A stretch of 64,000 nucleotides of DNA, from positions 1,197 through 65,196 of the forward strand of contig DATJXO010000091.1 of NCBI GenBank assembly GCA_035500055.1, in the 5' to 3' direction. Source of the stretch: Burkholderiales bacterium. GTDB taxonomy: Bacteria > Pseudomonadota > Gammaproteobacteria > Burkholderiales > SG8-39. How positions within the stretch are numbered: position 1 is the stretch's first letter; each line of letters opens with the position of its first letter. The notes under the pieces were generated by a model. The model ran no database searches and was not told where the DNA came from. It saw nothing but the letters and a program-made list of their open reading frames with translations. A program made the translations under genes and the position numbers. Below are positions 1 to 18,773 of the stretch, in pieces.

Positions 1-2359
<2,359 letters not shown>

Positions 2360-2370
2360 CGGCCCTGAAA

Positions 2371-2584: not shown

Positions 2585-3556
2585 TCAATGCAGCCGCGGC
2601 TTCTTGAGGAATTCGCTGCGATCCGCGGAGCGGATGGCGATGCGGCTGGCGCTGCCGCGGCGCGAGACGGTGAGGGTGACCTCGGCCCCGGCGCGGCCGG
2701 TGCGCCAGATCCGGCGAAAGAGCTGCGCCAGGCCGGAAACCTTGTCGCCCTCGACCTCGAGCACGAGATCGCCCAGCTTGACGCCGGCTTTCTCGGCCGG
2801 TCCGTTGGGCGCAAGGCCGCCGATCACCAGCTGGCCTTCCATTTCGGTGGCGTAGACGCCGAGCCAGGGACGCGGCGGGCGCGCCGCTCGTCCCAGCGCC
2901 AGCATCTCCTCCAGGATCGGCTCGACGAGATCGATCGGGACGAACATGTTGCCGTCGACCTGCTTGCCGCCCGAGGATTCCTGCACCAGCAGCGATCCCA
3001 CGCCGAGCAGCTTGCCCTCGGACGAGAGCAGCGCCGCGCCGCCCCACTGCGGGTGCGCCGGAGCGGTGAACAGCGCCTCGTCCAGCACGTATTCCCAGTA
3101 GCCCGCGAACTCGCGCTTGGCGATGATGCGGGTCTTGAGGGAGTGCGCGCGCCCGCCGTGGCCGACGACGATGACTTCGTCGCCCGGCCCGGCGTCGGCG
3201 ATCGTGCCCCGCTCTACGGGGCGCGCGCCGAGCGGGCCCAGCGGCAGCACCAGGCCGAAGCCGGTGGCCATGTCGTACGCCAGCGCGTGGCCCTGCACCA
3301 CCGCGCCGCGGTTGTTCGTCAGCCAGATCGTCTCCGCCTCGGTGATCAGGTAGCCGATGGTGAGCACCAGCCCGTCGTCGCGGATCACGATGCCGTTGCC
3401 GGCACGCTGCGTGCCTAGCAGCGGCGCGGTGTAGGCGTCCTCCGGGATCTCGGAGCGCAGCAGCAGCACCGCGTCGAGCGCCGCGGCGAGGTCGAACGGC
3501 GTGCCGTCCGGATCCGGCTGCAGCGCCGCGGGAAAGGACCAGGTGCTCTCGGCCAT
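2585..3556 (-). CDS. Trypsin-fold (S1C/HtrA-like) + PDZ protein, apparently lacking the catalytic His and Ser
   Basis: Start re-set to MAESTWSF (ATG 3556), 2 nt after the pobA stop. The C-terminal PDZ-like segment is GVYATEMEGQLVIGGLAPNGPAEKAGVKLGDLVLEVEG. The HtrA GNSGG position reads PQWGGAAL and the TNxHV position reads TIGYLI. Confidence 0.8.
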   Translation of the reverse strand: MAESTWSFPAALQPDPDGTPFDLAAALDAVLLLRSEIPEDAYTAPLLGTQRAGNGIVIRDDGLVLTIGYLITEAETIWLTNNRGAVVQGHALAYDMATGFGLVLPLGPLGARPVERGTIADAGPGDEVIVVGHGGRAHSLKTRIIAKREFAGYWEYVLDEALFTAPAHPQWGGAALLSSEGKLLGVGSLLVQESSGGKQVDGNMFVPIDLVEPILEEMLALGRAARPPRPWLGVYATEMEGQLVIGGLAPNGPAEKAGVKLGDLVLEVEGDKVSGLAQLFRRIWRTGRAGAEVTLTVSRRGSASRIAIRSADRSEFLKKPRLH

Positions 3557-3558
3557 CG

Positions 3559-5203
<1,645 letters not shown>

Positions 5204-6541
5204 ATGGGCTCGACGGTCTTCGATTCGGCGCTCTATCGCGACATGTTCGGCACGGCGCCGATGCGCGCCGTGTTCTCCGACGAGGGATTCCTCGCGCGCT
5301 GCCTCGAAGTCGAGGCCGCGCTCGCGCGCGCCCAGGCCGGCCTCGGCCTGATCCCCGCCGCGGCGGCGAGCGAAATCAGCGCCAAGGCCAAAGCCGCGGC
5401 GCTCGACCCGGAGCGGCTCAAGCGCGACACCGAGGTCGTCGGCTATCCCATCCTGCCGCTGGTCCGGCAGCTGGCGGCGGCCTGCGCCGGCGACGCGGGC
5501 CGCTACGTGCACTGGGGCGCGACCACGCAGGACATCATGGACAGCGCGCTCGTGCTCCAGCTGCGCGCGGCGCTGCAGCTCGTGGAGGCCGATCTGGCCG
5601 AGGTGTCCGCGGCGCTGGCGGCGCTCGCGCGCCGGCATCGGGACACGCCGATGGCGGGTCGCACCCACCTGCAGCAGGCGCTGCCGATCACCTTCGGCTT
5701 CAAGGCGGCGGTGTGGCGCGCGCCCGTCGAGCGCCACCGCGAGCGGCTCGCGCAGATGCGGCCGCGCGTGCTGGTGGGCCAGTTCGGCGGCGCGGCGGGC
5801 ACCCTCGCCTCGCTGGGCCGGGACGGCCTCGCGGTTCGCGCCGCGCTGATGCGCGAGCTCGGCCTCGCCGAGCCGGAAATCACCTGGCACGTCGCGCGCG
5901 ACGGCATTGCGGAGGCGGTGCTGTTCGCCGGCCTGGTGACCGGCTCGCTTGCCAAGATCGCCACCGACGTCATGCTGATGATGGCGACCGAGCTGGGCGA
6001 AGCCTTCGAGCCGTTCGAGCACGGGCGCGGCGGCAGCAGCACCATGCCGCAGAAGCGCAATCCGATTTCGTCGGAGCTGATCGTCGCCTGCGCCAAGCTG
6101 GCGCGCCAGCACGGCGCGTTGATGCTGGACGCGATGGTGCAGGACTTCGAGCGCGCGACCGGCCCCTGGCACGCCGAGTGGATCGCGGTGCCCGAGAGCT
6201 TCCTGGCGATGGCCGGCGCGCTTAGGCAGGCGAAGCTGATGCTCGCCGGGCTCACGGTGGACGCCGGCCGCATGGCGCGCAACCTCGGCATGACCTCGGG
6301 GCTGATCGTGGCGGAAGCCGTCATGATGGGCCTCGCGCCCAGGCTCGGCCGGCAGACCGCGCACGACGTCGTCTACGACGCCTGCCGCGCCGCGGCCGAA
6401 GGCGAGCGCCCGCTGCTCGAGCTGCTCGCCGCCGACCCTCAGGTGGCGCCGCACTTCACGCGGCCTGAGCTCGAGCGGCTGCTCGACCCGAGCAACTACC
6501 TCGGCAGCGCCGGCGCGATGGTGGACCGTGCGCTGCGCTGA
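5204..6541 (+). CDS. pcaB: 3-carboxy-cis,cis-muconate cycloisomerase
   Basis: Fumarate-lyase superfamily signature GSSTMPQKRNP. Matches PcaB-type blocks RYVHWGATTQDIMDSALVLQLR, TPMAGRTHLQQALPITFG and LLDPSNYLGSAG. Confidence 0.88.
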   Translation: MGSTVFDSALYRDMFGTAPMRAVFSDEGFLARCLEVEAALARAQAGLGLIPAAAASEISAKAKAAALDPERLKRDTEVVGYPILPLVRQLAAACAGDAGRYVHWGATTQDIMDSALVLQLRAALQLVEADLAEVSAALAALARRHRDTPMAGRTHLQQALPITFGFKAAVWRAPVERHRERLAQMRPRVLVGQFGGAAGTLASLGRDGLAVRAALMRELGLAEPEITWHVARDGIAEAVLFAGLVTGSLAKIATDVMLMMATELGEAFEPFEHGRGGSSTMPQKRNPISSELIVACAKLARQHGALMLDAMVQDFERATGPWHAEWIAVPESFLAMAGALRQAKLMLAGLTVDAGRMARNLGMTSGLIVAEAVMMGLAPRLGRQTAHDVVYDACRAAAEGERPLLELLAADPQVAPHFTRPELERLLDPSNYLGSAGAMVDRALR

Positions 6542-7665
6542 CGGCTGTCGGCGATGTGCGCGCCGATGCGCCGGGCGGCGGCGCTGATCTCGCGCAGCAG
6601 CCCGGTCAGCGGCGTCGCGAAGCCGATCAAGTACAGCCCTGGCCGCGGCGCGATCCCGCCGTGCCGCGCGCGCCCATGCGCGTCCACCAGCTCCTCGGCG
6701 TCATCCAGCAGGCGCTCCAGGCCCGGCCGGTATCCGGTCGCGAGCACCACCGCATCGTAGGCGGTGCGGCTGTCGTCGACGAAAACCACCGCGTCGCGGT
6801 CGAAGCGCTCGATGCCCTTGCGCACGGCGATGTCCCCGCGCTTGATGCGCGCGAGCGTACCGATGTCGATCAACGGGATGCGGCCGTGCTCGACGATGCC
6901 GCGCAGCGGGCCGTAGTCCGGCCGCGCGATCCCCCAGGGCGAGAGATCGCCGACGCTGAGCTTCAGCGTCGCTTGCGCGATGACGTCCGCCAGCCCGAGC
7001 GGCAGACGGGCGAGCGCGATCGTCGGCACCGGCGTGGGCAGGCCGAGCGTGTCGCGCCGCGTGACATGCAGCGCGGCGCGCACGCACAGATCGGCGCGCG
7101 CGCCGTGCTCCGCGAGGTCGAGCGCGATTTCCGCCCCCGAGTTGCCGGCGCCGACCACCAGCACGCGCCGGTCGCGCCAGCGCGCCCCGTTGCGGTAGGC
7201 GGAGCTGTGCAGCAGCTCGCCGGCGTAGCCGTCCATGCCGGGCCAACGCGGCGTGACCGGCACGGCGTTGAGCCCGGTCGCGACCACCGCACGCTCGGCC
7301 ACCCAGTCGCCCTGATCGGTGCGCACGCGCCAGCCGGAGCGGTCCGCCTCCGGCTCCAGGCGCGTGACCGTGACACCGAAGCGGGGCGCAATTCCGAAGC
7401 GCGAGGCGTACGCCGTCAGATAGTCGATCACCTGAGCGCGCGCCGGATAGGTTGGCGCGTCCCTCGGGAACGCCATGCCCGGCAGGGAGGAGAAGCGCTT
7501 GGCGGTGTGCAGATGCAGGCGATCGTAGTGCCGATGCCAGGCCGGCGCGATGGCGCGCTCGCGCTCCACGATGTCGAAAGGCACGCCGCGGGCGCGAAGC
7601 TCGCCCGCCACCGCCAGCCCCGCGGGACCCGCGCCGACGATCAAGGTATCGAGCTGCCGCACCAT
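6496..7665 (-). CDS. Class B flavin-containing monooxygenase-like NAD(P)/FAD oxidoreductase
   Basis: Two dinucleotide-binding motifs, IVGAGPAGLA (N-terminus) and VVGAGNSGAEIA (middle). 389 aa. Confidence 0.85.
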   Translation of the reverse strand: MVRQLDTLIVGAGPAGLAVAGELRARGVPFDIVERERAIAPAWHRHYDRLHLHTAKRFSSLPGMAFPRDAPTYPARAQVIDYLTAYASRFGIAPRFGVTVTRLEPEADRSGWRVRTDQGDWVAERAVVATGLNAVPVTPRWPGMDGYAGELLHSSAYRNGARWRDRRVLVVGAGNSGAEIALDLAEHGARADLCVRAALHVTRRDTLGLPTPVPTIALARLPLGLADVIAQATLKLSVGDLSPWGIARPDYGPLRGIVEHGRIPLIDIGTLARIKRGDIAVRKGIERFDRDAVVFVDDSRTAYDAVVLATGYRPGLERLLDDAEELVDAHGRARHGGIAPRPGLYLIGFATPLTGLLREISAAARRIGAHIADSRQRSARSTIAPALPR

Positions 7666-7693
7666 CGGCAGGCGCCGAGCTACGCGACGGCGG

Positions 7694-8809
7694 CTAGGCC
7701 GTTCCCCAGACTTCGTCCGCGGTCTCGATCACCAGGCGGAGCTTGTCGCGCTGCGCCTCGACCGCGATCTTGTTGCCGTGCACGGTGCTGGAGAAGCCGC
7801 ACTGCGGCGACAGCGCGAGCTGCTCGAGCGGCGCGTAGCGGGCGGCTTCGTCGATGCGGCGCTTCAGGTCGTCCTTCTTCTCCAGCTGCCCGAGCTTGGT
7901 GGTGACTAGTCCCAGCACCACGATCTTGTCCTTGGGCAGGAAGCGGAGCGGCTTGAAGTCGCCCGAGCGCGCGTCGTCGTATTCGAGGAAGTAGGCGTCG
8001 ACGTCCATCTCCGAGAGCAGCGCCTCGGCCACCGGCTCGTAGCCGCCCTGCGCCGCCCAGGTGCTCTGGAAATTGCCGCGACACAGGTGGATCGCGAGCG
8101 TCATGCTGGCCGGCTTTTTCGCGACGACGCGGTTGATGAACTTGGCGTAGCGGTGCGGCAGCTCGTTGGGGTCGTCGCCCCGCGCTCGCGCCGCGTCGCG
8201 CATCTTGTCGTCGCAGAGGTAGGCGAGGTTGGTGTCGTCCATCTGGACGTAGGTGCAGCCCGCCCTGGCGAGGGAGGCGAGCTCCTCGCCGTAGGCCTTG
8301 GCGACGTCCTCGTAGAAGTAGGGCTCGAGCTCCGGATAGTGCTCCCTGCTGATCCCGGCGCGGCCGCCGCGGAAGTGCAGCATGGTGGGCGACGGGATGG
8401 TGACCTTCGGCGTGCGCGCGGTGTACGCCTTCAGGTACTGGAAGTCGGCGAGCTGGATGTCCTTCGCGTGGCGTACCTTGCCGACCACGCGCATCACCGG
8501 CGGCGCGAGCTCCTCGGTGCCGTCCGGCTTTTTCACCATCACCGGAATGTCGGTCTTGACGCCGCCCAGCTGCTCGAGGAAGTCGATGTGGAAGTAGGTG
8601 CGGCGGAACTCGCCGTCGGTGATCGACTGCAGCCCGACGTCCTCCTGGAACCGGATGATCTCGGTGATCGCCCTGTCCTCGATCCCGCGTAGCGCCGCGG
8701 CGTCGATCTCCCCGCGCGCTTTCTTCTCGCGCGCCTCGAGCAGGTACTTCGGCCTGAGGAAGCTGCCTACGTGATCGGCTCGGAATGGCGGGGTGGTGCG
8801 CTTTGCCAT
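7694..8809 (-). CDS. MetE C-terminal-domain-like Zn-dependent alkyl/methyltransferase (cobalamin-independent methionine synthase family, short form)
   Basis: Start re-set to MAKRTTPPFRADHVGSFLRP (ATG 8809). Zn-ligand pattern present: IHLCRGN (H-x-C) and SPQCGFSS (C). 371 aa. Confidence 0.85.
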   Translation of the reverse strand: MAKRTTPPFRADHVGSFLRPKYLLEAREKKARGEIDAAALRGIEDRAITEIIRFQEDVGLQSITDGEFRRTYFHIDFLEQLGGVKTDIPVMVKKPDGTEELAPPVMRVVGKVRHAKDIQLADFQYLKAYTARTPKVTIPSPTMLHFRGGRAGISREHYPELEPYFYEDVAKAYGEELASLARAGCTYVQMDDTNLAYLCDDKMRDAARARGDDPNELPHRYAKFINRVVAKKPASMTLAIHLCRGNFQSTWAAQGGYEPVAEALLSEMDVDAYFLEYDDARSGDFKPLRFLPKDKIVVLGLVTTKLGQLEKKDDLKRRIDEAARYAPLEQLALSPQCGFSSTVHGNKIAVEAQRDKLRLVIETADEVWGTA

Positions 8810-10251
8810 GGTTCTCTCTCCGGATTCTGGTCGTTGCGCAGGTAGGCGCCCTGCTTCGCGAGGATGCTTTGGAGCTCGGCCGCGTCGACCGCGCGCGGCT
8901 CCACCCCGCGGTCCGCGGCGAGCGCCGCGGCGGCGCCCGCGGCCTGCCCGGTGACCCAGCATTGCGGTATCTCGCGCATGAAGCCATGGGAGTTCGGGTC
9001 GCAGGAGACGTGCCGTCCGCAGGCGAGCAGGCCGTCGAGCGCCTCCGGCACGAGGCAGCCGTAGGGGATCGAAAGGTTCGGGAATTTCGGCGACACGCTC
9101 GGCGTGACGCCGATCTCGTCCCGCAGCACCTCTCCCGAGGGCCATTGCGCGCGCGCGATCCGCGCGGCGCCGCGCAGGCGGCGGGAATGCCGTACCCCGA
9201 GCTGGGGCGCCGAGAGGAAGAGGTATGCGTTCTCGAAGCCCGGCGCGTGGGCGCGGTAGAACTCCAGGTGCTGCGCCATCAGGCGATGGGAGCGCACCTC
9301 GACCTCGGTCTGGTCGTCGACGTCGAGCGCGGAAAAGCCGGACTGGCGCGGGCCCATGAAGAGCGCGATGTCGTCGCGCCACGAGACGAACGGCTTCTCG
9401 AAGGCGCGCAGCCGCTCGCGGCCGCGCTGCATGAACTGCTGGAACTCGGCCGCGTGAGAGGCGCGCCACTCGAGCCAGCGCGGCATGTCGACGCCGCCGA
9501 GGAGCCAGGCCGTATTCATGCAGTGGTGGATGTCCTCGGCCTCGATGTCGGACTCGAACGCGGCGCCGGCGCGCGCAAACAGGTCGCCGTCGCCGGTCGC
9601 GTCCACCACCACCTTCGCGCGCACCGCCTGGCGGCCGGCCTTGCTCTCGAAGATCGCCCCGCGCACCCGCCCGTCCTGCATGAGCGGTGCGGCGGCCCAG
9701 GTGTGGAACGCCAGATGAACGCCCTGTTCCAGGACAATTTCCTGCGAGGCGAGCTTGAGGCGCTCCGGGTCGATGGTCGGCGACCAGGTGACGATGCCGT
9801 GCCACGCCGCCGTGCGCAGCGCCCAGTGCGCCGCGCGCGCCGGCTCGCGCGAGCCCCATTCCTCCGGCTTCGGGCCGGCGACGGCGTCCGCCGGCAGGCG
9901 CTCGAGGATCTCCTCGGCGAAGCCCCGGATCACGCACTGCCCGTTCCAGTCGGTCATGCGGTCGATCCAGATCACCAGCCCGCCGGTCGAGAGGCCGCCG
10001 AGGTGGTTGTACCGCTCGAGCAGCACGACCTCCGCGCCGCGCCGCGCGGCGGCGACCGCCGCCGCGGTGCCCGAAGGCCCGCCGCCGACGACCAGCACGT
10101 CGCAGTCTCGATAGACGGGGATCCTGCGCGCCGCTTCCTCGACCGACCCGAGCTCGCGGCGCGCCTCGCGCCGCCGCTGCTCGCCGAAGATCTCGACGTC
10201 GAAGATCTCGGACGAGAGGATCCGCTCCTCGGTGGGTTTTCTCTCCTTCAC
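8767..10251 (-). CDS. FAD-dependent oxidoreductase (GxGxxG flavoprotein, unknown substrate)
   Basis: DVLVVGGGPSGTAAAVAAARRGAEVVLLERYNHLGG, 494 aa, GTG start. The 3' end overlaps the next gene by 43 nt. Confidence 0.8.
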   Translation of the reverse strand: MKERKPTEERILSSEIFDVEIFGEQRRREARRELGSVEEAARRIPVYRDCDVLVVGGGPSGTAAAVAAARRGAEVVLLERYNHLGGLSTGGLVIWIDRMTDWNGQCVIRGFAEEILERLPADAVAGPKPEEWGSREPARAAHWALRTAAWHGIVTWSPTIDPERLKLASQEIVLEQGVHLAFHTWAAAPLMQDGRVRGAIFESKAGRQAVRAKVVVDATGDGDLFARAGAAFESDIEAEDIHHCMNTAWLLGGVDMPRWLEWRASHAAEFQQFMQRGRERLRAFEKPFVSWRDDIALFMGPRQSGFSALDVDDQTEVEVRSHRLMAQHLEFYRAHAPGFENAYLFLSAPQLGVRHSRRLRGAARIARAQWPSGEVLRDEIGVTPSVSPKFPNLSIPYGCLVPEALDGLLACGRHVSCDPNSHGFMREIPQCWVTGQAAGAAAALAADRGVEPRAVDAAELQSILAKQGAYLRNDQNPEREPWQSAPPRHSEPIT

Positions 10252-10269
10252 GGTTTTCGGAGCGGATTC

Positions 10270-10800
10270 CTAGAGATCAAAGAACACGGTTTCGCCGGGT
10301 CCCTGCAGCACCACGTTCCATTCCAGAGAGTCTCCCTTCCGCTTCGCGACGAGCGTCTGTCGCCGATCGGCCGGCACCAGGGCGAGGACCGGGTCTTCGG
10401 CGTTTGCCGGGTCGTCCGGAAAGTAGATGCGGCTCACCAGCTGCTTCAGCTGCCCGCGCATGAATATGTTGGCGGCGACATGCGGCGCCTGCAGCTTGCC
10501 GCCGGGCCCGGGCACGCGCCCCGGCTTTATGGTGCGGAACCGGAAGCGCCCGGCCGCGTCGGTTGCCGAGCGGCCGAAGCCGCGGAAGCCTTTCGCCCCG
10601 TAGCGGCCCGCCGCGTCGGCCTGCCAGATCTCGACCAGCGCGTCGTCTACCGGCTTGCCGTCGCCGTCGACGACGCGGCCCTCGAGGGTGATGCGCTCGC
10701 CCGCGGCACCGGCGGGGGCGAGATCCTCGGTGATGAGCCATGTCAGGCCGATGTGCAGGTAGGGGCCGACGGTCTGGGAGGTGGTCGCGTGCAGGCTCAT
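10270..10800 (-). CDS. pcaG: Protocatechuate 3,4-dioxygenase alpha subunit
   Basis: TTSQTVGPYLHIGL..., VEIWQADAAGRY, APHVAANIFMRG. ATGA overlap with pcaH. Confidence 0.9.
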   Translation of the reverse strand: MSLHATTSQTVGPYLHIGLTWLITEDLAPAGAAGERITLEGRVVDGDGKPVDDALVEIWQADAAGRYGAKGFRGFGRSATDAAGRFRFRTIKPGRVPGPGGKLQAPHVAANIFMRGQLKQLVSRIYFPDDPANAEDPVLALVPADRRQTLVAKRKGDSLEWNVVLQGPGETVFFDL

Positions 10801-11531
10801 CGAGGATTCTCCATCGGCGTGTAATCCGGCCCGCGCAGCACGACGTCGAAGCGGTAGCCGAGCGCGATCTCCGGGAGGGTGGTTTCCCAGTCGAGCGCCG
10901 ACACCAGCCGCGACCGCGCTCGCTCGTCCGGCACGCAGTTGTACATCGGGTCTTCGGCGAGCAGCGGGTCGCCCGGGAAGTACATCTGCGTCACCAGGCG
11001 CGTGGCGAAGGCCGGGCCGAAGATCGAGAAGTGGATGTGCGCCGGGCGCCAGGCGTTGTAGTGGTTACGCCAGGGATATTCGCCAGGCCGGATGGTGACG
11101 AAGCGGTAGCGTCCCTCGGCGTCGGTCAGGCAGCGGCCGGCGCCGGTGAAGTTCGGGTCCGTCGGCGCGTCGTGCTGGTCCACCTTGTGCGGGTAGCGGC
11201 CCGCCGAATTCGCTTGCCAGACTTCGACCAGCGTGTGCGGCACCGGCCGCGCGTTCTCGTCGAGCACGCGGCCGGAGACGACGATGCGCTCGCCGATCGG
11301 GTCGCCGGCGTGCTGGCGGGTGAGGTCGGCGTCGCCCGGGCGCACTTCGTCGTGGCCGAACGCCGGGCCGCTCAGCTCGGTGAGCGTCTGCGGCACGATG
11401 ACCAGCGGGCGCGTCGGCGCGCGCTTCACGGTCGAGGCGTACCTCGGAAAAAGGTAGTCCGGCTGTGTGCCGGCGGCCGGCCGCCGGTAGGCGGTTACCT
11501 GGCCTTGGGGTTGCTCGAGTTCTCTTTTCAT
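10797..11531 (-). CDS. pcaH: Protocatechuate 3,4-dioxygenase beta subunit
   Basis: VEVWQANSAGRYPHK, RPGEYPWRNHYNAWRPAHIHFSIFG (Fe ligand region), 244 aa. Confidence 0.92.
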   Translation of the reverse strand: MKRELEQPQGQVTAYRRPAAGTQPDYLFPRYASTVKRAPTRPLVIVPQTLTELSGPAFGHDEVRPGDADLTRQHAGDPIGERIVVSGRVLDENARPVPHTLVEVWQANSAGRYPHKVDQHDAPTDPNFTGAGRCLTDAEGRYRFVTIRPGEYPWRNHYNAWRPAHIHFSIFGPAFATRLVTQMYFPGDPLLAEDPMYNCVPDERARSRLVSALDWETTLPEIALGYRFDVVLRGPDYTPMENPR

Positions 11532-11536
11532 CGTTT

Positions 11537-12187
11537 CTACTCCGCGTCAGGCTGCCTGGCGGGATGCGCGCGTTCGAAGGCGTCGAGCCCCATGCAGCCG
11601 GCGAATACCCGCATCACCGCGGGGAAGGCCGTAGTGTCGCACTGATAGCGCTGCGCGTTGAAGACCTGCGGCACCAGGCAGCAATCGGCAAGGGTCGGCG
11701 AATCGCCGTGGCAATAGGCGCCGGTGCCAACCGAGCCCTCGGGCTTGCGCTGCAGCTCGGCCTCTACGCGGGCCAGGCCGTCGGCGACCCAGTGCCGGTA
11801 CCAGGCGTCGACCTGCTCCTGGCTCCGGCCGAGCGCGCCCTTCAGGTGCTGCAGCACCCGCAGGTTGTTGATCGGGTGAATCTCGCAGGCGACCAGCAGC
11901 GCGATCGAGCGCACGCGCGCCCGCTCGAACGGATTCCTAGGCAGCAGCGGCGGCCGGGGGTGCGTTTCCTCCAGGTATTCGATGATTGCGAGCGACTGAT
12001 TGAGCAGGTGCCCATGGTCCTCCAGCGTCGGCAGCAGCGCCTGCGGATTGACCGTGCCGTACGCCGGCGCACGGTGCTCCCCCTTCGCCAGGTGCACGAA
12101 CGCCGGCTCGTAGGCGAGCCCCTTCAGGTTCAGCGCGATCCGCACGCGGAACGCGGCCGAGCTGCGGAAGTAGGTGTAGAGCCTCAT
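11537..12187 (-). CDS. maiA: Zeta-class glutathione S-transferase (maleylacetoacetate/maleylpyruvate isomerase-like)
   Basis: Start re-set to MRLYTYFRSSAAFRVRIALNLKGL (ATG 12187, ATGA overlap with the upstream stop). ...VNPQALLPTL... QSLAIIEYLEE. Confidence 0.85.
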   Translation of the reverse strand: MRLYTYFRSSAAFRVRIALNLKGLAYEPAFVHLAKGEHRAPAYGTVNPQALLPTLEDHGHLLNQSLAIIEYLEETHPRPPLLPRNPFERARVRSIALLVACEIHPINNLRVLQHLKGALGRSQEQVDAWYRHWVADGLARVEAELQRKPEGSVGTGAYCHGDSPTLADCCLVPQVFNAQRYQCDTTAFPAVMRVFAGCMGLDAFERAHPARQPDAE

Positions 12188-13050
12188 TTCAGGCCGAGCA
12201 GTCTCGCCGCGTTCTGCTTCAGGATCAACGGCCGCACCTCCGGCTTGATCGGCAGCTTCTCGAAGTCCGCCAGCCACCGGTCGGGCTGAATCACCGGGTT
12301 GTCGCTGCCGAAGAGCACTCGGTCCTTGAGCAGCGTGTTGGCGTATTGCACCAGCTTCGGCTCGAAGTATTTCGGCGACCAGCCCGAGAGATCGATCCAT
12401 ACGTTCGGCTTGTGCAGCGCGACCGAGAGCTGCTCGTCCTGCCACGGCACCGCCGGGTGCGCGAGCACGATCGGCATCTCGGGAAAGTCGGCGGCGACGT
12501 CGTCGAGGAGGATCGGGTTGGCGTACTTGATGCGCAGGCCGCCGCCGCCTGGCATGCCGGCGCCGATGCCGGTCTGCCCGGTATGGAACAGCGCCGGCAG
12601 CTTCGCCTCCGCGATCGCTTCGTACAGCGGATACACGTCGCGGTCGTTGGGAAAGAAGCCCTGGATGATGGGATGGAACTTGAAGCCGCGCACGCCGAAA
12701 TCCCGGATCAGGCGCTTCGCCTCGCGCACGCCCATGCGGCCGCGCGCGGGGTCGATGCTGGCGAACGGGATCGCGACGTCGGCGTGCTCGTGCGCGGACT
12801 CGGCGACTTCCTCGTTGGAGATGCGGCGGATGCCCATGCCGCGCTCGTGGTCCACGGTGAAGACGACGAAGGCCATTTTCCGCGCGCGGTAGTACGCGGC
12901 CATCTGCGCGATGGTCGGGTGCTTCACCTCATAGCGGAAATAGCGGCCGCGTGCCTCGAGCGCTTCTTTCTCCGCCTCGTCCGGTAGCGCGCGGGTCGAT
13001 ACCTCGGCGTGGGTATGGATGTCGATCGCGACCAGGTTATCGATGTTCAT
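12184..13050 (-). CDS. Amidohydrolase_2-family metal-dependent hydrolase/decarboxylase/hydratase
   Basis: Start re-set to MNIDNLVAIDIHTHAEV (HxH metal motif). ...FKFHP..., ...LFGSDNP... 288 aa. ATGA overlap with the upstream stop. Confidence 0.85.
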   Translation of the reverse strand: MNIDNLVAIDIHTHAEVSTRALPDEAEKEALEARGRYFRYEVKHPTIAQMAAYYRARKMAFVVFTVDHERGMGIRRISNEEVAESAHEHADVAIPFASIDPARGRMGVREAKRLIRDFGVRGFKFHPIIQGFFPNDRDVYPLYEAIAEAKLPALFHTGQTGIGAGMPGGGGLRIKYANPILLDDVAADFPEMPIVLAHPAVPWQDEQLSVALHKPNVWIDLSGWSPKYFEPKLVQYANTLLKDRVLFGSDNPVIQPDRWLADFEKLPIKPEVRPLILKQNAARLLGLK

Positions 13051-14825
13051 GCCTGCACCTGTATGACGTTGGAAGCGGGGGGATCGGCGTAGAGCTGCTC
13101 GACCAGCGCCGAGCGCACCCGCAGCACCGCGCGCTGGTTGATGGAGCCCTTGTCGGTGACCTCGCCGGCGTCGATCGACGGCGGCACCTCGAGCACCATC
13201 GCGCGCGCGACGCGGTTGGAGCTCCCCGAGCTTTCGCGCGCGAGCTCCGCGAACACCCGCTCGAGCTTCGCGCGCAGCGCGCCGTCGCCGAGCTCGCGCG
13301 CCGCGGCGCTGGGGAAGACCAGCGCGCCCAGCTCGTCGCGATCGTGCCCGGTAATGACGCTGTCCTGGATCCACGGCGCGCCCGCCGCGTTGATGCGCGC
13401 GCGCAGAGGCCCGACCCGCGCCCACGTGCCCGACGAGAGCTTGAAGTCCTCGGCGATGCGGCCGTCGAATTCCAGGCCGAGCGACGGGTCGGCGGGATCC
13501 AGAAAGCGCATCGCGTCGCCCGTGCGGTAGTAGCCCTCCTCGTCGAAGGCCGCGCGCGAGAGCTCGGGCTGGCGCCAGTAGCCGGGGGTGATGTGCGGGC
13601 CGCGAAAGCGCACCTCGAGCTTGTCGTCGACCGGCACGAGCTTCATCTCGGCGCCGTCCACCGGCAGCCCGACGCTGCCCGCGCGTGGTGCGCCGCGGTT
13701 GGTGCTCATGGTGAAGGGCGCGGTCTCGGTCGAGCCGTAGCCGGTGATCCAGAGCACGCGCTCGCCGCAGGTTTCCTGCGCGAGGTCCTCGTACGCGCGC
13801 CACACCGGCTGCGGCAGCACCGCCGCGGCGTATTGCATCAGGCCGAGGCGGCTGAAGAAGTTGCGCCGCAGCTCGCGGTCGGCGCGCAGGTACGGCAGCA
13901 GCGCCTCGTAGCCGCGAGGCACGTTGAAGTAGATCGTGGGCGCGATTTCGCGCAGGTTGCGCACGGTCTTCTCGATCAGGCCGGGCAGCGGCCGCCCCTC
14001 GTCGATGTAGAGCGTGCCGCCGTGGCTCAGCACGATGCCCAGGTTGTGGTTCGCGCCGGCGGTGTGGTTCCAGGGCAGCCAGTCGACCAGCACCGGCGGC
14101 TGCTCGGCAAGCGAGGGCAGCGATTGCGCGAGCATCTGCTGGTTGCTGCAGAGCATGCGCTGGGTGTTGATGACGGCCTTCGGCTGCCCGGTCGAGCCCG
14201 AGGTGAGCAGGAACTTGGCGACCGTATCGGGCCCGACCGCGGCATGGGCCGCCTCCACCGCCGAGGTCGGTCGGGTTGCGGCGAGCTGATGGAAGCGCTC
14301 GCCGGTGACGATCTCGGTGCCGGAGGGCACTGCCGCGGCGATCGCGCGCCCGTAGCGTGCGGCGTCGCTGGCGTACACCAGCCCGGGTGTGAGCAGCGCG
14401 AGCGCCTGCTTCAGCTTCGCGAAATCGGCCGACAGCAGCGAGTACGCGGGCGACACCGGGACGAAGGCGATGCCCGCGTGCATCGCCGCGAGCGCGAGCA
14501 GCGCGTGCTCGAGGTCGTTCTCCGACAGGATCGCGAGCGGCCGCTCGGCGGAAAGCCGGCGCTCGATCAGCGCCTGGGCGAGAGCCCGCACGTGCTCGAA
14601 CGCATCGCCGTAGGCAAGCCGGCGCCAGGCGCCTGCCGCCGTCCGCTGCGCCAGAAACGGGCGTGCGGGGGCGGCGGCCGCCCAGTACACCAAGCGCTCC
14701 GTGAGCCGCGCGCCGTAAGGCGCGAGCGAGTGCGGCGAGCGCAGCAGGATCGAGCCGTCGGCTCGCCGCTCGATTTCGACCTCGGCGCGGCCTAGCCGAA
14801 CCGCGCGCACGGGGACGGCGCTCAT
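13047..14825 (-). CDS. AMP-forming acyl-CoA synthetase, feruloyl-CoA synthase (Fcs)-like
   Basis: LLTSGSTGQPKAV, GYGSTETAP, YYRTGD, ...EVTDKGSINQRAVL C-terminus. 592 aa. Confidence 0.85.
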   Translation of the reverse strand: MSAVPVRAVRLGRAEVEIERRADGSILLRSPHSLAPYGARLTERLVYWAAAAPARPFLAQRTAAGAWRRLAYGDAFEHVRALAQALIERRLSAERPLAILSENDLEHALLALAAMHAGIAFVPVSPAYSLLSADFAKLKQALALLTPGLVYASDAARYGRAIAAAVPSGTEIVTGERFHQLAATRPTSAVEAAHAAVGPDTVAKFLLTSGSTGQPKAVINTQRMLCSNQQMLAQSLPSLAEQPPVLVDWLPWNHTAGANHNLGIVLSHGGTLYIDEGRPLPGLIEKTVRNLREIAPTIYFNVPRGYEALLPYLRADRELRRNFFSRLGLMQYAAAVLPQPVWRAYEDLAQETCGERVLWITGYGSTETAPFTMSTNRGAPRAGSVGLPVDGAEMKLVPVDDKLEVRFRGPHITPGYWRQPELSRAAFDEEGYYRTGDAMRFLDPADPSLGLEFDGRIAEDFKLSSGTWARVGPLRARINAAGAPWIQDSVITGHDRDELGALVFPSAAARELGDGALRAKLERVFAELARESSGSSNRVARAMVLEVPPSIDAGEVTDKGSINQRAVLRVRSALVEQLYADPPASNVIQVQA

Positions 14826-14832
14826 GGCGCCG

Positions 14833-15525
14833 CTACAGCGCCGGGACGATCTTCACCTTGAGCTCGCCCACGCCGTCGATGCCGGCGTGCAGCTCGTCGC
14901 CCGGCTTGACCGGACCGACGCCGGCCGGCGTGCCGGAATAGATCAGGTCGCCCGGCTCCAGCGTGTAGTACTCGGACAGGAACGCGATCTGCTCGGGCAC
15001 CGACCAGATCATGTCCGAGAGGTCGGCCTTCTGCCGTTCCTTGCCGTTCACCCTGAGCCAGATCGCGCCCTTCGCCGGGTAGCCGATCTTCGAGGCCGGC
15101 GCGAGCGCGCTGCAGGGCGCCGCCTCGTCGAAGTCCTTGCCGAAATCCCACGGCCGGCCGTGGTCCTTGCCGACCTGCTGCAGGTCGCGGCGCGTCATGT
15201 CGAGCCCGGTGCCGTAGCCGAAGATGTGCTCGTTCGCCTTGGCCGCGGCGATGCGGCGCCCACCCTTGGCGATCGCCACCACCATCTCCGTTTCGTAGTG
15301 GTAGTTCGAGGTCTTCGGCGGGTAGTGCACCTCGCCGCCTCCGGCAACCAGCGCGTGCGCCGCCTTGAGGAAGAAGAACGGGGTCTCGCGGCCGTCGCCC
15401 CCCATTTCCTTCTGGTGCTCGACGTAGTTGCGCCCGACGCAGAAGATGCGGCGCACCGGAAACATGTCGCCGCTGCCGGTGACCGGAAGCGCCGGGGGAC
15501 TCCAGATCGGGATTGCGAAGGCCAT
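14833..15525 (-). CDS. Fumarylacetoacetate hydrolase (FAH) family protein (fumarylpyruvate hydrolase-like)
   Basis: RIFCVGRNYVEHQKEMG, YETEMVVAIAKGG, EPGDLIYSGTPAGVG. 230 aa. First gene of the minus-strand operon. Confidence 0.85.
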   Translation of the reverse strand: MAFAIPIWSPPALPVTGSGDMFPVRRIFCVGRNYVEHQKEMGGDGRETPFFFLKAAHALVAGGGEVHYPPKTSNYHYETEMVVAIAKGGRRIAAAKANEHIFGYGTGLDMTRRDLQQVGKDHGRPWDFGKDFDEAAPCSALAPASKIGYPAKGAIWLRVNGKERQKADLSDMIWSVPEQIAFLSEYYTLEPGDLIYSGTPAGVGPVKPGDELHAGIDGVGELKVKIVPAL

Positions 15526-15630
15526 CGCGGGGGTTCTCCTGGGAGGTTGCCGACGGGAAAAGGGCTGTTGCTGCCCGTTATTTTAGCGATTAGCATTACC
15601 GGCTCGCATTTCCAGCGACAGGAGGAGACC
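15526..15630. promoter_or_regulatory. Divergent promoter region between the catabolic operon and the ABC importer
   Basis: 105-bp gap, locally AT-richer (CGTTATTTTAGCGATTAGCATTACC with a TTAGC-N2-TTAGC direct repeat). Strong RBS GGAGGAG lies 4 nt before ATG 15631. Confidence 0.45.
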
Positions 15631-16839
15631 ATGATTCGCAGAATCGGTGTGCTGGCGCTTGCGCTGGCGGCGGCCGCGCTGGCCGCGTTTGCCACGGGGG
15701 CGTCGGCGCAGACCGTCAAGGTCGGCGTGGTGCTGCCCTACTCGGGAATCGGCGCGGAATTCGCGCAGCAGGTCGACCGCGGCATGAAGATATTCATGCA
15801 GCTGCATCCCGGCGCCTTCGGCAGCTACAAGATCGAGCTCGTCAAGCGCGACTCGAAGAACCCGAGCGGCGCGCCCGCGAAGACCGCGGTGCAGGAGCTG
15901 ATCACCCAGGACAAGGTGGACATCCTCACCGGGTTCATCTTCTCGCCGGATGCGATCGCCTCCGCGCCCCTGGTGACCGAGGCGAACAAGCCCATGATCA
16001 TCATGAACGCGGGCACGGCGTGGATCACGGATCTCTCGCCCGACATTGCGCGCGTCTCCTTCTCGATGTGGCACGCGGGCTTCGCGATGGGCCAGACCGC
16101 CGCGAAGATGCTGCACGCGAAGACCGCGGTGGTCGGCTATACCGACTATCCGCCGGGCAAGGACAGCCTGGAGGCCTTCAAGCACGGCTTCGAGGCGAAC
16201 GGCGGCAAGGTGATCGACGCGATTCCGATGGGCAGCCCGGCCAAGGTGCCGGATTTCACCCCGTTCTTCCAGCGCGTCAAGGACGAGAAGCCCGACGTGT
16301 TCTTCGTGTTCGTGCCCGCGGGCGACCACGCCGTCGCGGTGGCGAAGACCTACGCCGCGCTCGGCATGAAGCAGGCCGGCATCAAGCTGATCGGGCCCGG
16401 CGACATCACGCAGGACACCGAGCTGCAGAAAATGGGCGACGACGCGGTGGGGCTGATCACGGTGCACCACTACAACGCGGACCTCGACAATCCCGCCAAC
16501 AAGCGCTTCGTCGCCGCGTGGAAGAAGGAGTACGGCGCCGACTCGACTCCCGATTTCATGGCGGTGCAGGGCTACGACGGCATGGCGGCGATCGCGCACG
16601 TGGTCACCTCGCTTAAGGGCAAGATCGACGGCACCAGCGCGATGAAGGCGCTCGAGGGCTGGAAGTTCGACAGCCCGCAAGGCCCGATCATGATCGACCC
16701 GGCCACCCGCGACATCGTGATGAACGAGTACGTGAGCGAGCTGGAGAAGAAGGACGGCCGCATGGTGCAGAAGAACATCGGCGTCATCAAGGCGGTCAAG
16801 GACATGTGCAAGGAGCTGAAGGTCGGCCGCTGCAAATAG
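15631..16839 (+). CDS. ABC transporter periplasmic substrate-binding protein (Liv/branched-chain-type fold; substrate probably aromatic acid)
   Basis: Start re-set to MIRRIGVLALALAAAALAAFATGASAQ (signal peptide). TVKVGVVLPYSGIGAEF..., 402 aa. Confidence 0.88.
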   Translation: MIRRIGVLALALAAAALAAFATGASAQTVKVGVVLPYSGIGAEFAQQVDRGMKIFMQLHPGAFGSYKIELVKRDSKNPSGAPAKTAVQELITQDKVDILTGFIFSPDAIASAPLVTEANKPMIIMNAGTAWITDLSPDIARVSFSMWHAGFAMGQTAAKMLHAKTAVVGYTDYPPGKDSLEAFKHGFEANGGKVIDAIPMGSPAKVPDFTPFFQRVKDEKPDVFFVFVPAGDHAVAVAKTYAALGMKQAGIKLIGPGDITQDTELQKMGDDAVGLITVHHYNADLDNPANKRFVAAWKKEYGADSTPDFMAVQGYDGMAAIAHVVTSLKGKIDGTSAMKALEGWKFDSPQGPIMIDPATRDIVMNEYVSELEKKDGRMVQKNIGVIKAVKDMCKELKVGRCK

Positions 16840-16864
16840 CCGCAGCCGCGGCTCCGACAGGCAC

Positions 16865-16904
16865 GCCGCCGCCCGCGGGCACCTAGCGGGCGGCGGCTTT
16901 TTTT
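16865..16904 (+). terminator. Strong intrinsic terminator/attenuator between the binding-protein and permease genes
   Basis: GCCGCCGCCCGC-9 nt loop-GCGGGCGGCGGC (12-bp perfect stem) followed by TTTTTTT. Confidence 0.75.
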
Positions 16905-16905
16905 C

Positions 16906-17778
16906 GTGATGGACCTCGCCAACGTCCTGGGCATTCTTCTTGGCGGCCTCGCCTCCGGCATGGTGCTGTTCATCGTGTCGGTGGGGCTGTCGATCACGAT
17001 GGGCCTGATGGGGTTCGTCAACCTCGCGCACGGCGGCTTCGCCATGCTCGGCGGCTACGTGGTCGCGCTCTCGATGCGGTCTCTCGGCGTGCCTTTCGTG
17101 CCGGCGCTGGCGATCGCGTTCGTCGCGGTCGCCGCGCTCTCGGTGGTGCTGGAGCGCCTGTTCTACGCGCGCTTGTACCGCGCCGGCGAGCTCGACCAGG
17201 TGCTGTTCACGATCGGCCTGATCTTCGTGATGATCTCGGCGGTGACGCTGGCGGTGGGTCCGGAGGCGCAGACGCTGCGGCTGCCGGAGTGGCTGCGCGG
17301 CCAGACCGACCTCGGCTTCATGCGCTATCGCAGCTACAGCCTCGCGCTGATCGCGGCCGGAAGCGCGCTGGTGGTCGTGCTCTGGCTCGGCTTCGAGCGC
17401 ACCCGGATCGGGGCCCAGATCCGCGCCGCGGTGGACAACCGCCGCATGGCCGAGTCGATCGGCGTCAACGTGGCAAGGCTCTTCACCCTCACGTTCGCGC
17501 TCGGCAGCGGGCTGGCGGCGGTGGGCGGTGGCCTCGGCGCCGAGATCCTCGGGCTCGATCCGCAGTACCCGCTGCGCTACCTGGTCTACTTCCTGATCGT
17601 GGTGTCGGTGGGCGGGCTGGGGCGCGTGACCGGCGTGTTCTTCGCGGCGCTGCTCATCGGCGTGCTCGATTTCGTCCTCAAGATCCGGTTCCCGCAGGGC
17701 GGCACGCTGTTCATCTACGCCCTCACCCTGGGGTTGCTGCTGTGGCGGCCGCAGGGATTGTTCGGGAAGCGCGCGTGA
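16906..17778 (+). CDS. ABC transporter permease (LivH-type)
   Basis: (M)MDLANVLGILLGGLASGMVLFIVSVGLSITMGLMGFVNLAHGGF... Start is GTG 16906 or ATG 16909. Confidence 0.88.
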   Translation: MMDLANVLGILLGGLASGMVLFIVSVGLSITMGLMGFVNLAHGGFAMLGGYVVALSMRSLGVPFVPALAIAFVAVAALSVVLERLFYARLYRAGELDQVLFTIGLIFVMISAVTLAVGPEAQTLRLPEWLRGQTDLGFMRYRSYSLALIAAGSALVVVLWLGFERTRIGAQIRAAVDNRRMAESIGVNVARLFTLTFALGSGLAAVGGGLGAEILGLDPQYPLRYLVYFLIVVSVGGLGRVTGVFFAALLIGVLDFVLKIRFPQGGTLFIYALTLGLLLWRPQGLFGKRA

Positions 17779-18773
17779 TGACGTCCCCCCTGCCGGCGGC
17801 CGAAGCGCTGGCGCGGCGGCATCGCCTGCGCTGGTGGGAGGCGCTGCCGTGGGCGGCGGCGATGGCCGCCTATTTCGTCTTTCCCACGTACCTTGCCTTC
17901 GGCACGCAGGTGCTGGTGACGGTGCTGTTCGTGCTGTCGCTCGACCTAGTGCTCGGCTACGCCGGCATCGTCACCCTGGGGCACGCGGCGTTCTTCGGTG
18001 CCGGCGCCTATACCGTGGGCTTGCTCGCGCAGCACGCCGGCTGGAACGAACCCCTCTCCGGTCTCGCCGCGGCCGCCGTGGTCGCGGGATTGCTCGGCCT
18101 GGCGAGCGGCTTCGTAGTTCTGCGAACGCAGGGGCTGACGCTTCTGATGCTCACCTTGTGCACCATGGCGCTGCTCGAGGAGTCCGCCAACATGGGCGCG
18201 GCCTGGACCGGCGGCTTCGACGGCTTGCCGGACCTCCAGTTCAAGCCGCTGCTCGGCTTGTTCCGCTTCGAGCAGCTGTCGTACCGCCCCCAGTACTTCT
18301 ACGCGCTCGCGGTGCTGTTTGCCTGCTTCGTGCTCGTACGCACGCTGGTCCACTCCCCGTTCGGGCAGTCGCTCACGGGAATCCGCGAGAACCTGCTGCG
18401 CATGCATGCGGTGGGCGCGCCGGTGCACCGGCGCCTGGTGACCGCGTACGCGATCTCGGCGGCGCTCGCCGGAGTCGCCGGCGGGCTGTTCACGCAGTGC
18501 AACGCCTACGTGAACCTTGCGGTGCTGGGGCTGGACCGCGCCGCGGGCGCGCTCATCATCCTGATCCTGGGCGGCTACGGGCGCCTCTACGGCGCCTTCG
18601 TCGGCGCGGTTGCCTACATGGTGCTCGAGCACGTGCTGGCCCGGGCGTACCCCACCGCCTGGCAGCTCGGCATCGGCCTGCTGCTGATGGCGGTGGCGCT
18701 CTATGCGCGCAACGGCATCCTCGGGCTGGCCGCGTCGCTGGCGCGCCGCGCGAGCGGCTCGAGGCGCGCATGA
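17778..18773 (+). CDS. ABC transporter permease (LivM-type)
   Basis: Start re-set to MTSPLPAAEAL (ATG 17778, overlapping the upstream TGA). ...LDLVLGYAGIVTLGHAAFFGAGAY... Confidence 0.87.
   Translation: MTSPLPAAEALARRHRLRWWEALPWAAAMAAYFVFPTYLAFGTQVLVTVLFVLSLDLVLGYAGIVTLGHAAFFGAGAYTVGLLAQHAGWNEPLSGLAAAAVVAGLLGLASGFVVLRTQGLTLLMLTLCTMALLEESANMGAAWTGGFDGLPDLQFKPLLGLFRFEQLSYRPQYFYALAVLFACFVLVRTLVHSPFGQSLTGIRENLLRMHAVGAPVHRRLVTAYAISAALAGVAGGLFTQCNAYVNLAVLGLDRAAGALIILILGGYGRLYGAFVGAVAYMVLEHVLARAYPTAWQLGIGLLLMAVALYARNGILGLAASLARRASGSRRA

Follow-up and report, generated by a model that had tools for sequence, protein, structure and literature searches.

A tightly coupled nine-gene array around pcaHG in an uncultured Burkholderiales bacterium, plausibly a mosaic of known-type aromatic-acid modules

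We analyzed a 64-kb stretch of DNA from a Burkholderiales bacterium (contig DATJXO010000091.1; the whole stretch is hereafter the window), in which nine minus-strand genes at positions 6496-15525 form an array that contains pcaH and pcaG, the genes for the two subunits of protocatechuate 3,4-dioxygenase. In the order of reading, the array encodes an FAH-family hydrolase (FAH), an Fcs-type acyl-CoA synthetase (ACS), an Amidohydro_2 enzyme (AH2), a zeta-class GST, PcaH, PcaG, an FAD-dependent oxidoreductase (the FAD gene), a short MetE-like protein, and a small flavin monooxygenase (FMO). An initial annotation of this DNA had listed these genes with their families and junctions, and we could reproduce all three: an open reading frame (ORF) listing with inspection of start codons returned every gene at its position, the recomputed junctions were identical (from FAH to FMO: +7, -4, -4, +5, -4, +18, -43, and +28 nt), and each family call is backed by Pfam or NCBIfam profile searches, the NCBIfam scores being judged against the family cut-offs (Table 1). 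The three -4 nt junctions (ACS/AH2, AH2/GST, and pcaH/pcaG) are literal ATGA overlaps, and AH2 carries one at both ends. The FAH gene is preceded by an AGGAGA ribosome-binding site, and a scan of all intergenic gaps for terminator-like sites revealed no convincing terminator between the genes of the array. The nine genes thus lie on one strand, with short or overlapping junctions and without internal terminators, which agrees with the annotated operon-like unit; from this layout we infer that they are probably co-transcribed as one transcript. The whole array, including the FMO gene, was found again, 99-100% identical, in independent assemblies from ENA, JGI, and Logan (L001, L172, L173, and L174, where the labels L001-L176 denote related stretches that were compared with the window; L172 is 99.97% identical to the window), indicating that it is neither a chimera nor an assembly artifact.

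Table 1. Features of the array, its flanks, and selected homologues in related loci. Bit scores are followed, where given, by the family cut-off. Coordinates refer to the window unless a locus label is given.
Feature	Position	Strand	Remarks
metH	2-2455	-	flank, syntenic with relatives
DegP-like PDZ protease	2585-3775	-	flank, syntenic with relatives
pobA, 4-hydroxybenzoate 3-monooxygenase	3559-4746	-	395 aa; PF01494; PRK08243, 616 bits vs. 351 (passes); TIGR02360, 522 bits vs. 539 (slightly short)
4HBT-type (hot-dog) acyl-CoA thioesterase	4766-5203	+	145 aa; abuts pcaB; PF03061/PF13279 on L172 gene call
pcaB, 3-carboxy-cis,cis-muconate cycloisomerase	5204-6541	+	TIGR02426, 376 bits vs. 356
Small class-B flavin monooxygenase (FMO)	6496-7665	-	389 aa; last gene of the array; PF00743 + PF13738
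Short MetE-like zinc alkyltransferase	7694-8809	-	371 aa; Meth_synt_2 PF01717; PRK06520, 446 bits vs. 313
FAD-dependent oxidoreductase (FAD gene)	8767-10251	-	494 aa; GTG start; FAD_oxidored PF12831, 280 bits
pcaG, protocatechuate 3,4-dioxygenase alpha subunit	10270-10800	-	176 aa, short loops; TIGR02423, 207 bits vs. 126
pcaH, protocatechuate 3,4-dioxygenase beta subunit	10797-11531	-	244 aa; TIGR02422, 352 bits vs. 296
Zeta-class GST, putative NagL/MaiA-type maleylpyruvate or maleylacetoacetate isomerase	11537-12187	-	216 aa; maiA TIGR01262, 274 bits vs. 171
Amidohydro_2 enzyme (AH2)	12184-13050	-	288 aa; PF04909
Predicted Fcs-type aryl-C3-acid CoA ligase (ACS)	13047-14825	-	592 aa; PF00501 + PF23562; PRK12582, 745.8 bits vs. 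777 (slightly under)
FAH-family hydrolase, putative NagK-type fumarylpyruvate/acylpyruvate hydrolase	14833-15525	-	230 aa; gene 1 of the array; PF01557, 190 bits
Divergent intergenic region, FAH/ABC binding protein	15526-15630	.	105 bp; presumed array promoter region
ABC uptake system: Peripla_BP_6 binding protein, two permeases, two ATPases	15631-20219	+	Pfam on L001 gene calls
AMP2, second AMP-forming ligase, benzoate/3-hydroxybenzoate-CoA-ligase family	20225-21781	-	518 aa; PF00501 + PF13193; HbdA, 427 bits, and TIGR02262, 353 bits, both under cut-off (NCBIfam)
MarR-family regulator, CouR-like	21818-22285	+	best solved relative R. palustris CouR 6C28
Ammonium transporter (amt)	22345-24051	-	flank, syntenic with relatives
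TPP-dependent enzyme (related loci)	L171 8265-10001; L170 8199-9935; L108 11261-12997	.	in L171 overlaps FAD start by 1 nt
MetE-like homologues near AH2 (related loci)	L049 11230-12327; L053 11278-12396; L045 1121-2206

PcaH, aligned to chain M of 2PCD, keeps the Fe(III) ligands Tyr108, Tyr147, His160, and His162 as well as the substrate residues Arg157 and Trp149 (in dioxygenase numbering Tyr408, Tyr447, His460, His462, Arg457, and Trp449), and in PcaG, aligned to chain A of 1EO2, the GPY motif and the counterpart of alpha-Arg133 are conserved (the reference structures are those of Pseudomonas putida and Acinetobacter). We rejected PcaHG as a sulfocatechol or gallate specialist, as all protocatechuate-site residues checked in these alignments are kept; it is predicted to be a canonical protocatechuate 3,4-dioxygenase that performs intradiol cleavage to 3-carboxy-cis,cis-muconate. 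Outside the array, the pcaB and FMO genes are convergent and overlap by 46 bp (6496-6541). Two further genes on this side, the 4HBT-type thioesterase and pobA, had been missed in the initial annotation; they are divergent and 19 bp apart, and their pairing is kept in L170 and L171. No pcaC, pcaD, pcaI, pcaJ, or pcaF was found in the window by tblastn with queries from related loci (E≤1e-3), so that besides pcaHG only pcaB and pobA represent the pca gene set. This verifies both earlier remarks, that pcaB lies outside the operon on the other strand and that the later pca genes are absent from the window. In relatives pcaC follows pcaB, and it is gone from the window. The pcaB gene of the window is a different paralogue, only 38-42% identical to that of most relatives and inverted relative to theirs; L105 and L130 have homologues (87-88% identity) that are inverted at the same place.

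The relatives came from two scans, a pcaH-anchored metagenome scan (80 loci, 71-90% identity) and an AH2-anchored genome scan with clustering of neighbors (77 loci, 61-90% identity, spanning Beta- and Alphaproteobacteria, Actinomycetes, and Chloroflexota). From Pfam-annotated long contigs and ORF clustering we derived a shared frame for the lineage, which reads, with variable modules in parentheses: amt - MarR - AMP2 - (ABC transporter, opposite strand) - FAH - (ECH-ACS-AH2) - GST - pcaH - pcaG - (TPP enzyme PRK08327) - (FAD - MetE-like) - pcaB - pcaC - 4HBT on the opposite strand - pobA - DegP-like - metH, where ECH is enoyl-CoA hydratase, TPP is thiamine pyrophosphate, and ABC is ATP-binding cassette. 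The modules in parentheses come and go independently. The TPP-dependent enzyme (PRK08327, 648 bits), for example, separates pcaG from the FAD gene in some 10 relatives and is missing from the window. GST lies directly upstream of pcaH in 48 of the 61 loci with enough upstream sequence; 12 of the remaining 13 look canonical where the flank suffices (pcaIJ(F)-pcaHG-pcaB/D/C, or pobA upstream), and in L166, which lacks GST, FAH is directly 5' of pcaH. Among the 52 loci with at least 1.6 kb of upstream sequence, the order is FAH-GST-pcaH in 21 and AH2-GST-pcaH in 17 (together 38 of 52), the latter having ACS-AH2, with or without ECH, inserted between FAH and GST. In L170 (positions 3919-8041 of a 1.2-Mb metagenome contig), ligC-ligB-ligA stands where pcaHG would, after FAH-ACS-AH2-GST, with two Amidohydro_2 genes of LigI/LigJ size beside it on the opposite strand; the ring-cleavage module of this locus is swapped within the same frame. 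The array occupies a variable part of a catabolic island for aromatic acids in an uncultured soil/sediment Burkholderiales lineage, and the syntenic amt and metH flanks mark it as a putative variable insert at a fixed chromosomal site.

Conservation of the nine-gene block as a unit, which had been proposed as a point to check, did not hold up: at most eight of the nine genes co-occur in other members of the lineage, and the FMO gene is confined to this organism. Scattering of the orthologues among relatives, put forward earlier as an observation that would speak for a chance assembly, is accordingly seen for the nine-gene unit and is not seen for the FAH-GST-pcaHG core. A fortuitous juxtaposition, i.e., independent head-to-tail transcription units with internal promoters and functionally unlinked modules, would be in keeping with this independent gain and loss and with the unique FMO gene; no copy of the palindrome of the MarR region (see below) precedes FAH, and the +18 and +28 nt gaps could be served by promoters within upstream coding sequence. 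We consider it very unlikely, given that three ATGA overlaps and the 43-nt overlap join different modules (ACS-AH2 to GST; FAD to MetE), that no terminator-like sites separate the genes, and that all modules to which a function can be assigned are aromatic-acid catabolic, most of them converging on protocatechuate.

The two genes that frame the ACS-AH2 insert resemble those of the lower gentisate pathway. The best solved relatives of FAH are the fumarylpyruvate hydrolases 4MAQ and 6J5Y (E ~1e-74), and that of GST is NagL (2V6K/2JL4, 2e-60). FAH is 51-53% identical to FAH genes beside gentisate dioxygenase in Azospirillum and Massilia, GST is 56% identical to the maiA adjoining gtdA in Azospirillum, and the pair together is 51-57% identical to the FAH/maiA genes flanking gentisate 1,2-dioxygenase in these genera. 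By homology, FAH is classed as NagK-type and GST as NagL-type, with the proviso that GST homologues at ~51-57% identity occur in both maleylpyruvate and maleylacetoacetate contexts, so that identity at this level does not separate the two specificities. Gentisate dioxygenase was found neither in the window (queries: Azospirillum GtdA and the Massilia cupin) nor within 10 kb of ~170 related loci, bar one unrelated match (L080). The initial annotation had been right in pointing out that a zeta-GST and a small FAH accompany pcaHG in the absence of a nearby cupin dioxygenase, and the position of GST in 48 of 61 loci extends this linkage to the relatives. In Burkholderia xenovorans on 4-hydroxybenzoate, gentisate and protocatechuate dioxygenase activities are both present (PMC3572157). 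The simplest reading is that FAH and GST would serve the lower gentisate branch, with the dioxygenase encoded elsewhere in the genome. The conservation of FAH-GST-pcaHG without a nearby gentisate dioxygenase is the main unexplained point, and the literature searched yielded nothing relevant on an operon of this kind.

It had been suggested instead that an intradiol cleavage product might meet a new fate. More broadly, FAH and GST could serve protocatechuate or hydroxycinnamate catabolism in a function of their own, acting on a ring-fission product or on an acylpyruvate- or maleyl-type intermediate that forms with no cupin dioxygenase involved. The missing gentisate dioxygenase is in keeping with such a role, and the FAH-GST-pcaH(G) arrangement is the commonest in the lineage (the 38 of 52 loci above), with a 4-nt FAH/GST overlap where there is no insert, GST ending 5 nt 5' of pcaH, and an aryl-CoA ligase and a thioesterase in the same frame. 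The seven-carbon chain of maleylpyruvate, however, cannot by our reasoning arise from intradiol cleavage of a six-membered ring, and the identity of the pair to true gentisate-cluster genes, with NagK- and NagL-type proteins as its best solved relatives, points the other way, as does L166, which does without GST. PcaHG is canonical, and pcaB and, in relatives, pcaC come after it; the pair also persists beside ligCBA in L170, where ligAB replaces pcaHG; since the products of 3,4- and 4,5-cleavage differ, a common downstream need for FAH and GST is unlikely. We therefore judge a separate role of the pair improbable and find the proposed new fate unsupported. Formation of maleylpyruvate or maleylacetoacetate by intradiol cleavage was rejected on chemistry (our own carbon counting), and so was FAH as a substitute for PcaD. 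We also rejected, as a general explanation, a diiron oxygenase and reductase 5' of AMP2 that would open the ring without a dioxygenase, as these occur in L166 only (L153 has a reductase-like fragment).

L166 is a basal relative, in which a stretch at 4970-7700 with a 2Fe-2S reductase-like gene, a short-chain dehydrogenase/reductase (SDR) gene, and a PaaA/BoxB-like diiron oxygenase gene (identified by eye) precedes AMP2-FAH-pcaHG. This arrangement suggests an aryl-CoA oxygenase module.

The insert itself, ACS-AH2, is widespread. In the AH2-anchored scan, homologues of ACS (47-77% identity) adjoin AH2 in 45 of the 77 genome loci, usually together with an enoyl-CoA hydratase (32 loci), a MarR (23 loci), and an SDR gene (20 loci). 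The Agrobacterium tumefaciens locus L048 reads SDR-Fcs / ECH / MarR-AH2 and is 47% (ACS) and 62% (AH2) identical to the window; the ligases of such clusters in Agrobacterium and Chelativorans are 47-48% identical to ACS. AH2 has the motifs HxH at 12-14, His198, and Asp250 (string search), and the source names of its relatives at 87-89% identity point to a beta-ketoacyl-CoA hydrolase of the CouO/Atu1421 type. By family and synteny, ACS is predicted to be an Fcs-type hydroxycinnamate-CoA ligase, the substrate being a prediction, and AH2 a CouO/Atu1421-type beta-ketoacyl-CoA hydrolase, the usual partner of such a ligase. Atu1415-1422 of Agrobacterium fabrum encode a CoA-dependent beta-oxidative deacetylation of hydroxycinnamates (PMC7797058), whose final deacetylation step is catalyzed in Rhodococcus jostii by the amidohydrolase-superfamily enzyme CouO (PMC4737184). 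The ligase had been described as lacking its usual partners. This is true of Ech and Vdh: the locus does not hold the Fcs-Ech-Vdh route, with no Ech in the window and no aldehyde dehydrogenase (Vdh) among the annotated genes of the region. It is not true of AH2, whose role had been overlooked; because AH2 is the usual companion of an Fcs-like ligase, as the synteny in most of the 77 loci and the literature on the beta-oxidative route both indicate, the ligase is not partnerless.

No homologue of enoyl-CoA hydratase/crotonase, SDR, or the TPP enzyme was found in the window. SDR is absent from every locus of the lineage, and ECH is present in some: it lies, translationally coupled, between FAH and ACS in L002, L092, L099, L108, L128, and L171, unlike in the window. 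The missing hydratase and dehydrogenase are either encoded elsewhere, or else ACS-AH2 acts on aroyl-acetates. In Rhodococcus rhodochrous, HpeE and HpeF are such a pair of ligase and CouO-type hydrolase, which handles aroyl-acetates and works without a hydratase or dehydrogenase (PMC9618137). ACS-AH2 could likewise convert 4-hydroxybenzoyl-acetate or vanilloyl-acetate derived from acetophenone- or beta-hydroxypropiovanillone-type lignin fragments, for which neither enzyme would be needed; the distribution of ECH and SDR would fit, as would about 12 other loci with MarR-ACS-AH2 plus pobA and/or a dioxygenase and without ECH or SDR. The ligase of the window is nonetheless Fcs-type whereas HpeE is AcsA2-type, ECH is coupled to ACS in the sister loci, the regulator is nearest to a p-coumaroyl-CoA sensor, and generic beta-oxidation enzymes could supply the missing steps, and we regard the use of aroyl-acetates as rather unlikely.

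Several AH2 homologues stand in other surroundings. In a second architecture, an RtcB-family gene, pobA, or both come after MarR-ACS-AH2, without hydratase or dehydrogenase (L082, 7716-12715; also L019, L021, L024, L027, L029, L031, L033, L035, L040, L054, and L068). Eight of these loci carry a single 195-aa Dioxygenase_C protein that is 35-38% identical to PcaG; the RtcB gene, of an RNA-ligase family, is an odd presence inside an aromatic cluster. In L085-L087 (9525-12246), an AH2 homologue (87% identity) occurs as Usp - AH2 - Gate-domain transporter, without a ligase. The AH2 family evolves very slowly and may extend beyond hydroxycinnamate catabolism. AH2 clusters of Comamonadaceae (L077, 4416-6254; L053, 3503-5230; and similar ones) often contain genes for a 612-aa tannase/feruloyl-esterase-like protein and a 575-aa acyl-CoA dehydrogenase, assigned by eye from motifs.

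The FAD, MetE-like, and FMO genes form the tail of the array. The FAD protein matched no NCBIfam equivalog, its family profile matched PDB sequences only at the dinucleotide-binding (Rossmann) motif, and its AlphaFold2 model (27-sequence alignment) had a pLDDT of 44, unfit for a fold search. Its gene follows pcaG, sometimes behind the TPP enzyme, in 19 of 33 informative related loci. A homologue (63% identity) on the Variovorax paradoxus VAI-C chromid (L176, 8114-15092) lies in a LysR-controlled cluster in the order TctC binding protein, alpha/beta hydrolase, FAD protein, TIM-barrel protein, shikimate dehydrogenase, alpha/beta hydrolase, and SMP-30 lactonase, which hints at another protocatechuate-feeding setting. 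The MetE-like protein passes its PRK06520 cut-off, and its solved relative 1YPX (2e-99) is uncharacterized. String search, without alignment to MetE, located the motifs HxC (241-243), FLEYD, and SPQCG with Cys337, which may correspond to the zinc-ligand motifs of MetE (His, Cys, Glu, Cys). The protein does not have the two-domain, ~750-aa architecture of MetE, the user of methyl-tetrahydrofolate-Glu3; it is a single domain, and its TIGR01371 score of 44 bits compares with a cut-off of 930. Most loci of the closer sub-lineage carry its gene, and outside the lineage six loci (L007, L018, L045, L049, L053, and L076) have it no more than 10 kb from AH2, among them Rhodoferax, Curvibacter, Ramlibacter, and a Ktedonobacteraceae metagenome-assembled genome (81-83% identity in Comamonadaceae, 39% in the Ktedonobacteraceae genome). 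By a rough estimate, this is more often than expected by chance. A further homologue beside a urea transporter on Klebsiella plasmids was uninformative. FMO has 8Z12-17 and SMFMO 4A9W as best solved relatives and the motifs GAGPAG, YAGELLHSSAY, GAGNSG, and ATGY; homologues were found in L172-L175, from the same organism as the window, and in none of the other ~170 loci. Since ferulate would give vanillate and the locus has no recognizable vanillate demethylase, our guess is that the MetE-like protein takes part in methoxy-group removal or C1 recycling. The literature searched held nothing relevant on MetE-like O-demethylases or on YxjG/YxjH. We think it quite improbable that the MetE-like protein is a cofactor-independent, thiol-dependent vanillate O-demethylase, with the FAD protein and FMO recycling the methylated acceptor, and/or that the NagK/NagL-like pair acts on a non-gentisate substrate.

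With somewhat better than even confidence, we read the array as a tightly coupled, probably co-transcribed mosaic of known-type aromatic-acid modules around a normal pcaHG, and not as one new pathway. Extra modules would have been slotted into the shared frame of the lineage in the same orientation. The Fcs-type ligase would activate a hydroxyphenyl-C3 acid, and the CouO-type hydrolase would split the beta-ketoacyl-CoA into a hydroxybenzoate and acetyl-CoA; the substrate would be p-coumarate, ferulate, or caffeate if hydratase and dehydrogenase come from elsewhere, or an aroyl-acetate directly. PobA, PcaHG, and PcaB would feed 4-hydroxybenzoate, by way of protocatechuate, to the usual beta-ketoadipate pathway, whose later enzymes would be encoded elsewhere, while the NagL/NagK-type isomerase and hydrolase would form the lower half of a gentisate branch, again with the dioxygenase elsewhere. 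For the PF12831 flavoprotein, the MetE-like protein, and FMO, removal of the vanillate methoxy group is a guess. Observed are the gene layout, the protein families, the kept active-site residues of PcaHG, and the modular make-up of the related loci; co-transcription, functions, substrates, the gentisate role of FAH and GST, and any part played by the last three proteins are inferred from homology and context.

Several points weigh against this mosaic. Neither the window nor the 10-kb surroundings of the related loci offer a gentisate dioxygenase for FAH and GST, and the window lacks the hydratase and dehydrogenase that ACS-AH2 would require for hydroxycinnamates. AH2 is linked to CouO/Atu1421 by synteny and source names and not by direct alignment, no characterized close relative of the FAD or MetE-like protein was found, and the related loci were chosen as closest matches and are syntenic, so that their conservation may partly reflect shared ancestry. 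It leaves two features unexplained: nagKL-like genes that are conserved with no gentisate dioxygenase nearby, and the paired FAD and MetE-like genes. The earlier suggestion that the combination represents an undescribed funnel finds no support either, given that the modules come and go independently, PcaHG is canonical, and the ligase has a partner. If the mosaic reading is right, the locus would be an example of soil Burkholderiales assembling long catabolic operons from ready-made modules in a fixed frame, with translational coupling re-established at every junction and even the ring-cleavage module exchangeable (pcaHG vs. ligAB). It would also correct a common mis-annotation, as a generic "amidohydrolase" beside an Fcs-like ligase would be the side-chain-cleaving enzyme. 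This would be useful for metagenome annotation and lignin-valorization engineering and would involve no new principle. Two leads emerge, and either could reveal an undescribed demethylation or lower-pathway step: the conserved nagKL-like genes, which have no gentisate dioxygenase beside them, and the MetE-like and FAD genes, which recur close to genes of hydroxycinnamate and protocatechuate catabolism.

Each module has counterparts in known systems. With Atu1415-Atu1422 (SpG8-1b) of Agrobacterium fabrum and the cou genes of Rhodococcus jostii, the window shares an Fcs-type ligase, an Atu1421/CouO-type hydrolase, a MarR-type regulator, and hydroxybenzoates that feed protocatechuate; unlike these, it lacks an enoyl-CoA hydratase (Atu1417), a dehydrogenase (Atu1415), and a LigM-type demethylase, and its ligase and hydrolase genes stand between FAH and GST as part of a pca operon. 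The adjacent ligase and CouO-type hydrolase recall HpeE/HpeF of the hydroxyphenylethanone pathway of Rhodococcus rhodochrous GD02, which yield vanillate or 4-hydroxybenzoate, but HpeE is AcsA2-like where the ligase of the window is Fcs-like, and the window has no kinase, carboxylase, or phosphatase genes of that pathway. A zeta-GST and a small FAH of the same subfamilies occur as nagK-nagL in Ralstonia sp. U2, as mhbH-mhbI in Burkholderia xenovorans, and in gtdA-maiA-FAH of Azospirillum, and in relatives of the window without an insert FAH and GST are likewise adjacent and overlapping; here, in contrast, neither gentisate 1,2-dioxygenase nor 3-hydroxybenzoate 6-hydroxylase is nearby, and the pair heads a protocatechuate-cleavage operon. 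From the classical pobA/pcaHG/pcaB(C) branch the window retains PcaH, PcaG, PcaB, and PobA past thresholds (PobA for PRK08243 only) and the catalytic residues of PcaHG, whereas pcaB is inverted, foreign modules lie between the pca genes, and pcaC, pcaD, pcaIJ, and pcaF are absent from the 64 kb. Larger clusters of this kind are the supraoperonic pca-qui-pob-hca cluster of Acinetobacter baylyi ADP1 and the couR-couAB-couPSTU locus of Rhodopseudomonas palustris. In these as in the window, genes for taking up and activating hydroxycinnamates, hydroxylating p-hydroxybenzoate, and cleaving protocatechuate are clustered under a MarR-type repressor that senses aryl-CoA; the window differs in its single co-directional, translationally coupled array and in a route via a CouO-type hydrolase instead of a hydratase/lyase.

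Upstream of the array, the 105-bp region 5' of FAH contains no consensus promoter and no copy of the MarR-region palindrome. The ABC transporter beyond it varies among relatives, many of which have no such module between AMP2 and FAH. The MarR regulator matches CouR (6C28) at 1.9e-21, the next match being at 3e-11; CouR of R. palustris is a p-coumaroyl-CoA-responsive repressor. A near-perfect 21-bp palindrome, TTTGTTTGGGCCCCAAACAAA, at 21849-21869 overlaps a promoter-like site between the MarR and AMP2 genes and is likely a candidate operator; no second copy was found in the window or in any locus. Relatives without the transporter have FAH directly after AMP2, and there an operator at the palindrome would control the whole array. 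In the window, the transporter insertion separates the palindrome and AMP2 from FAH.

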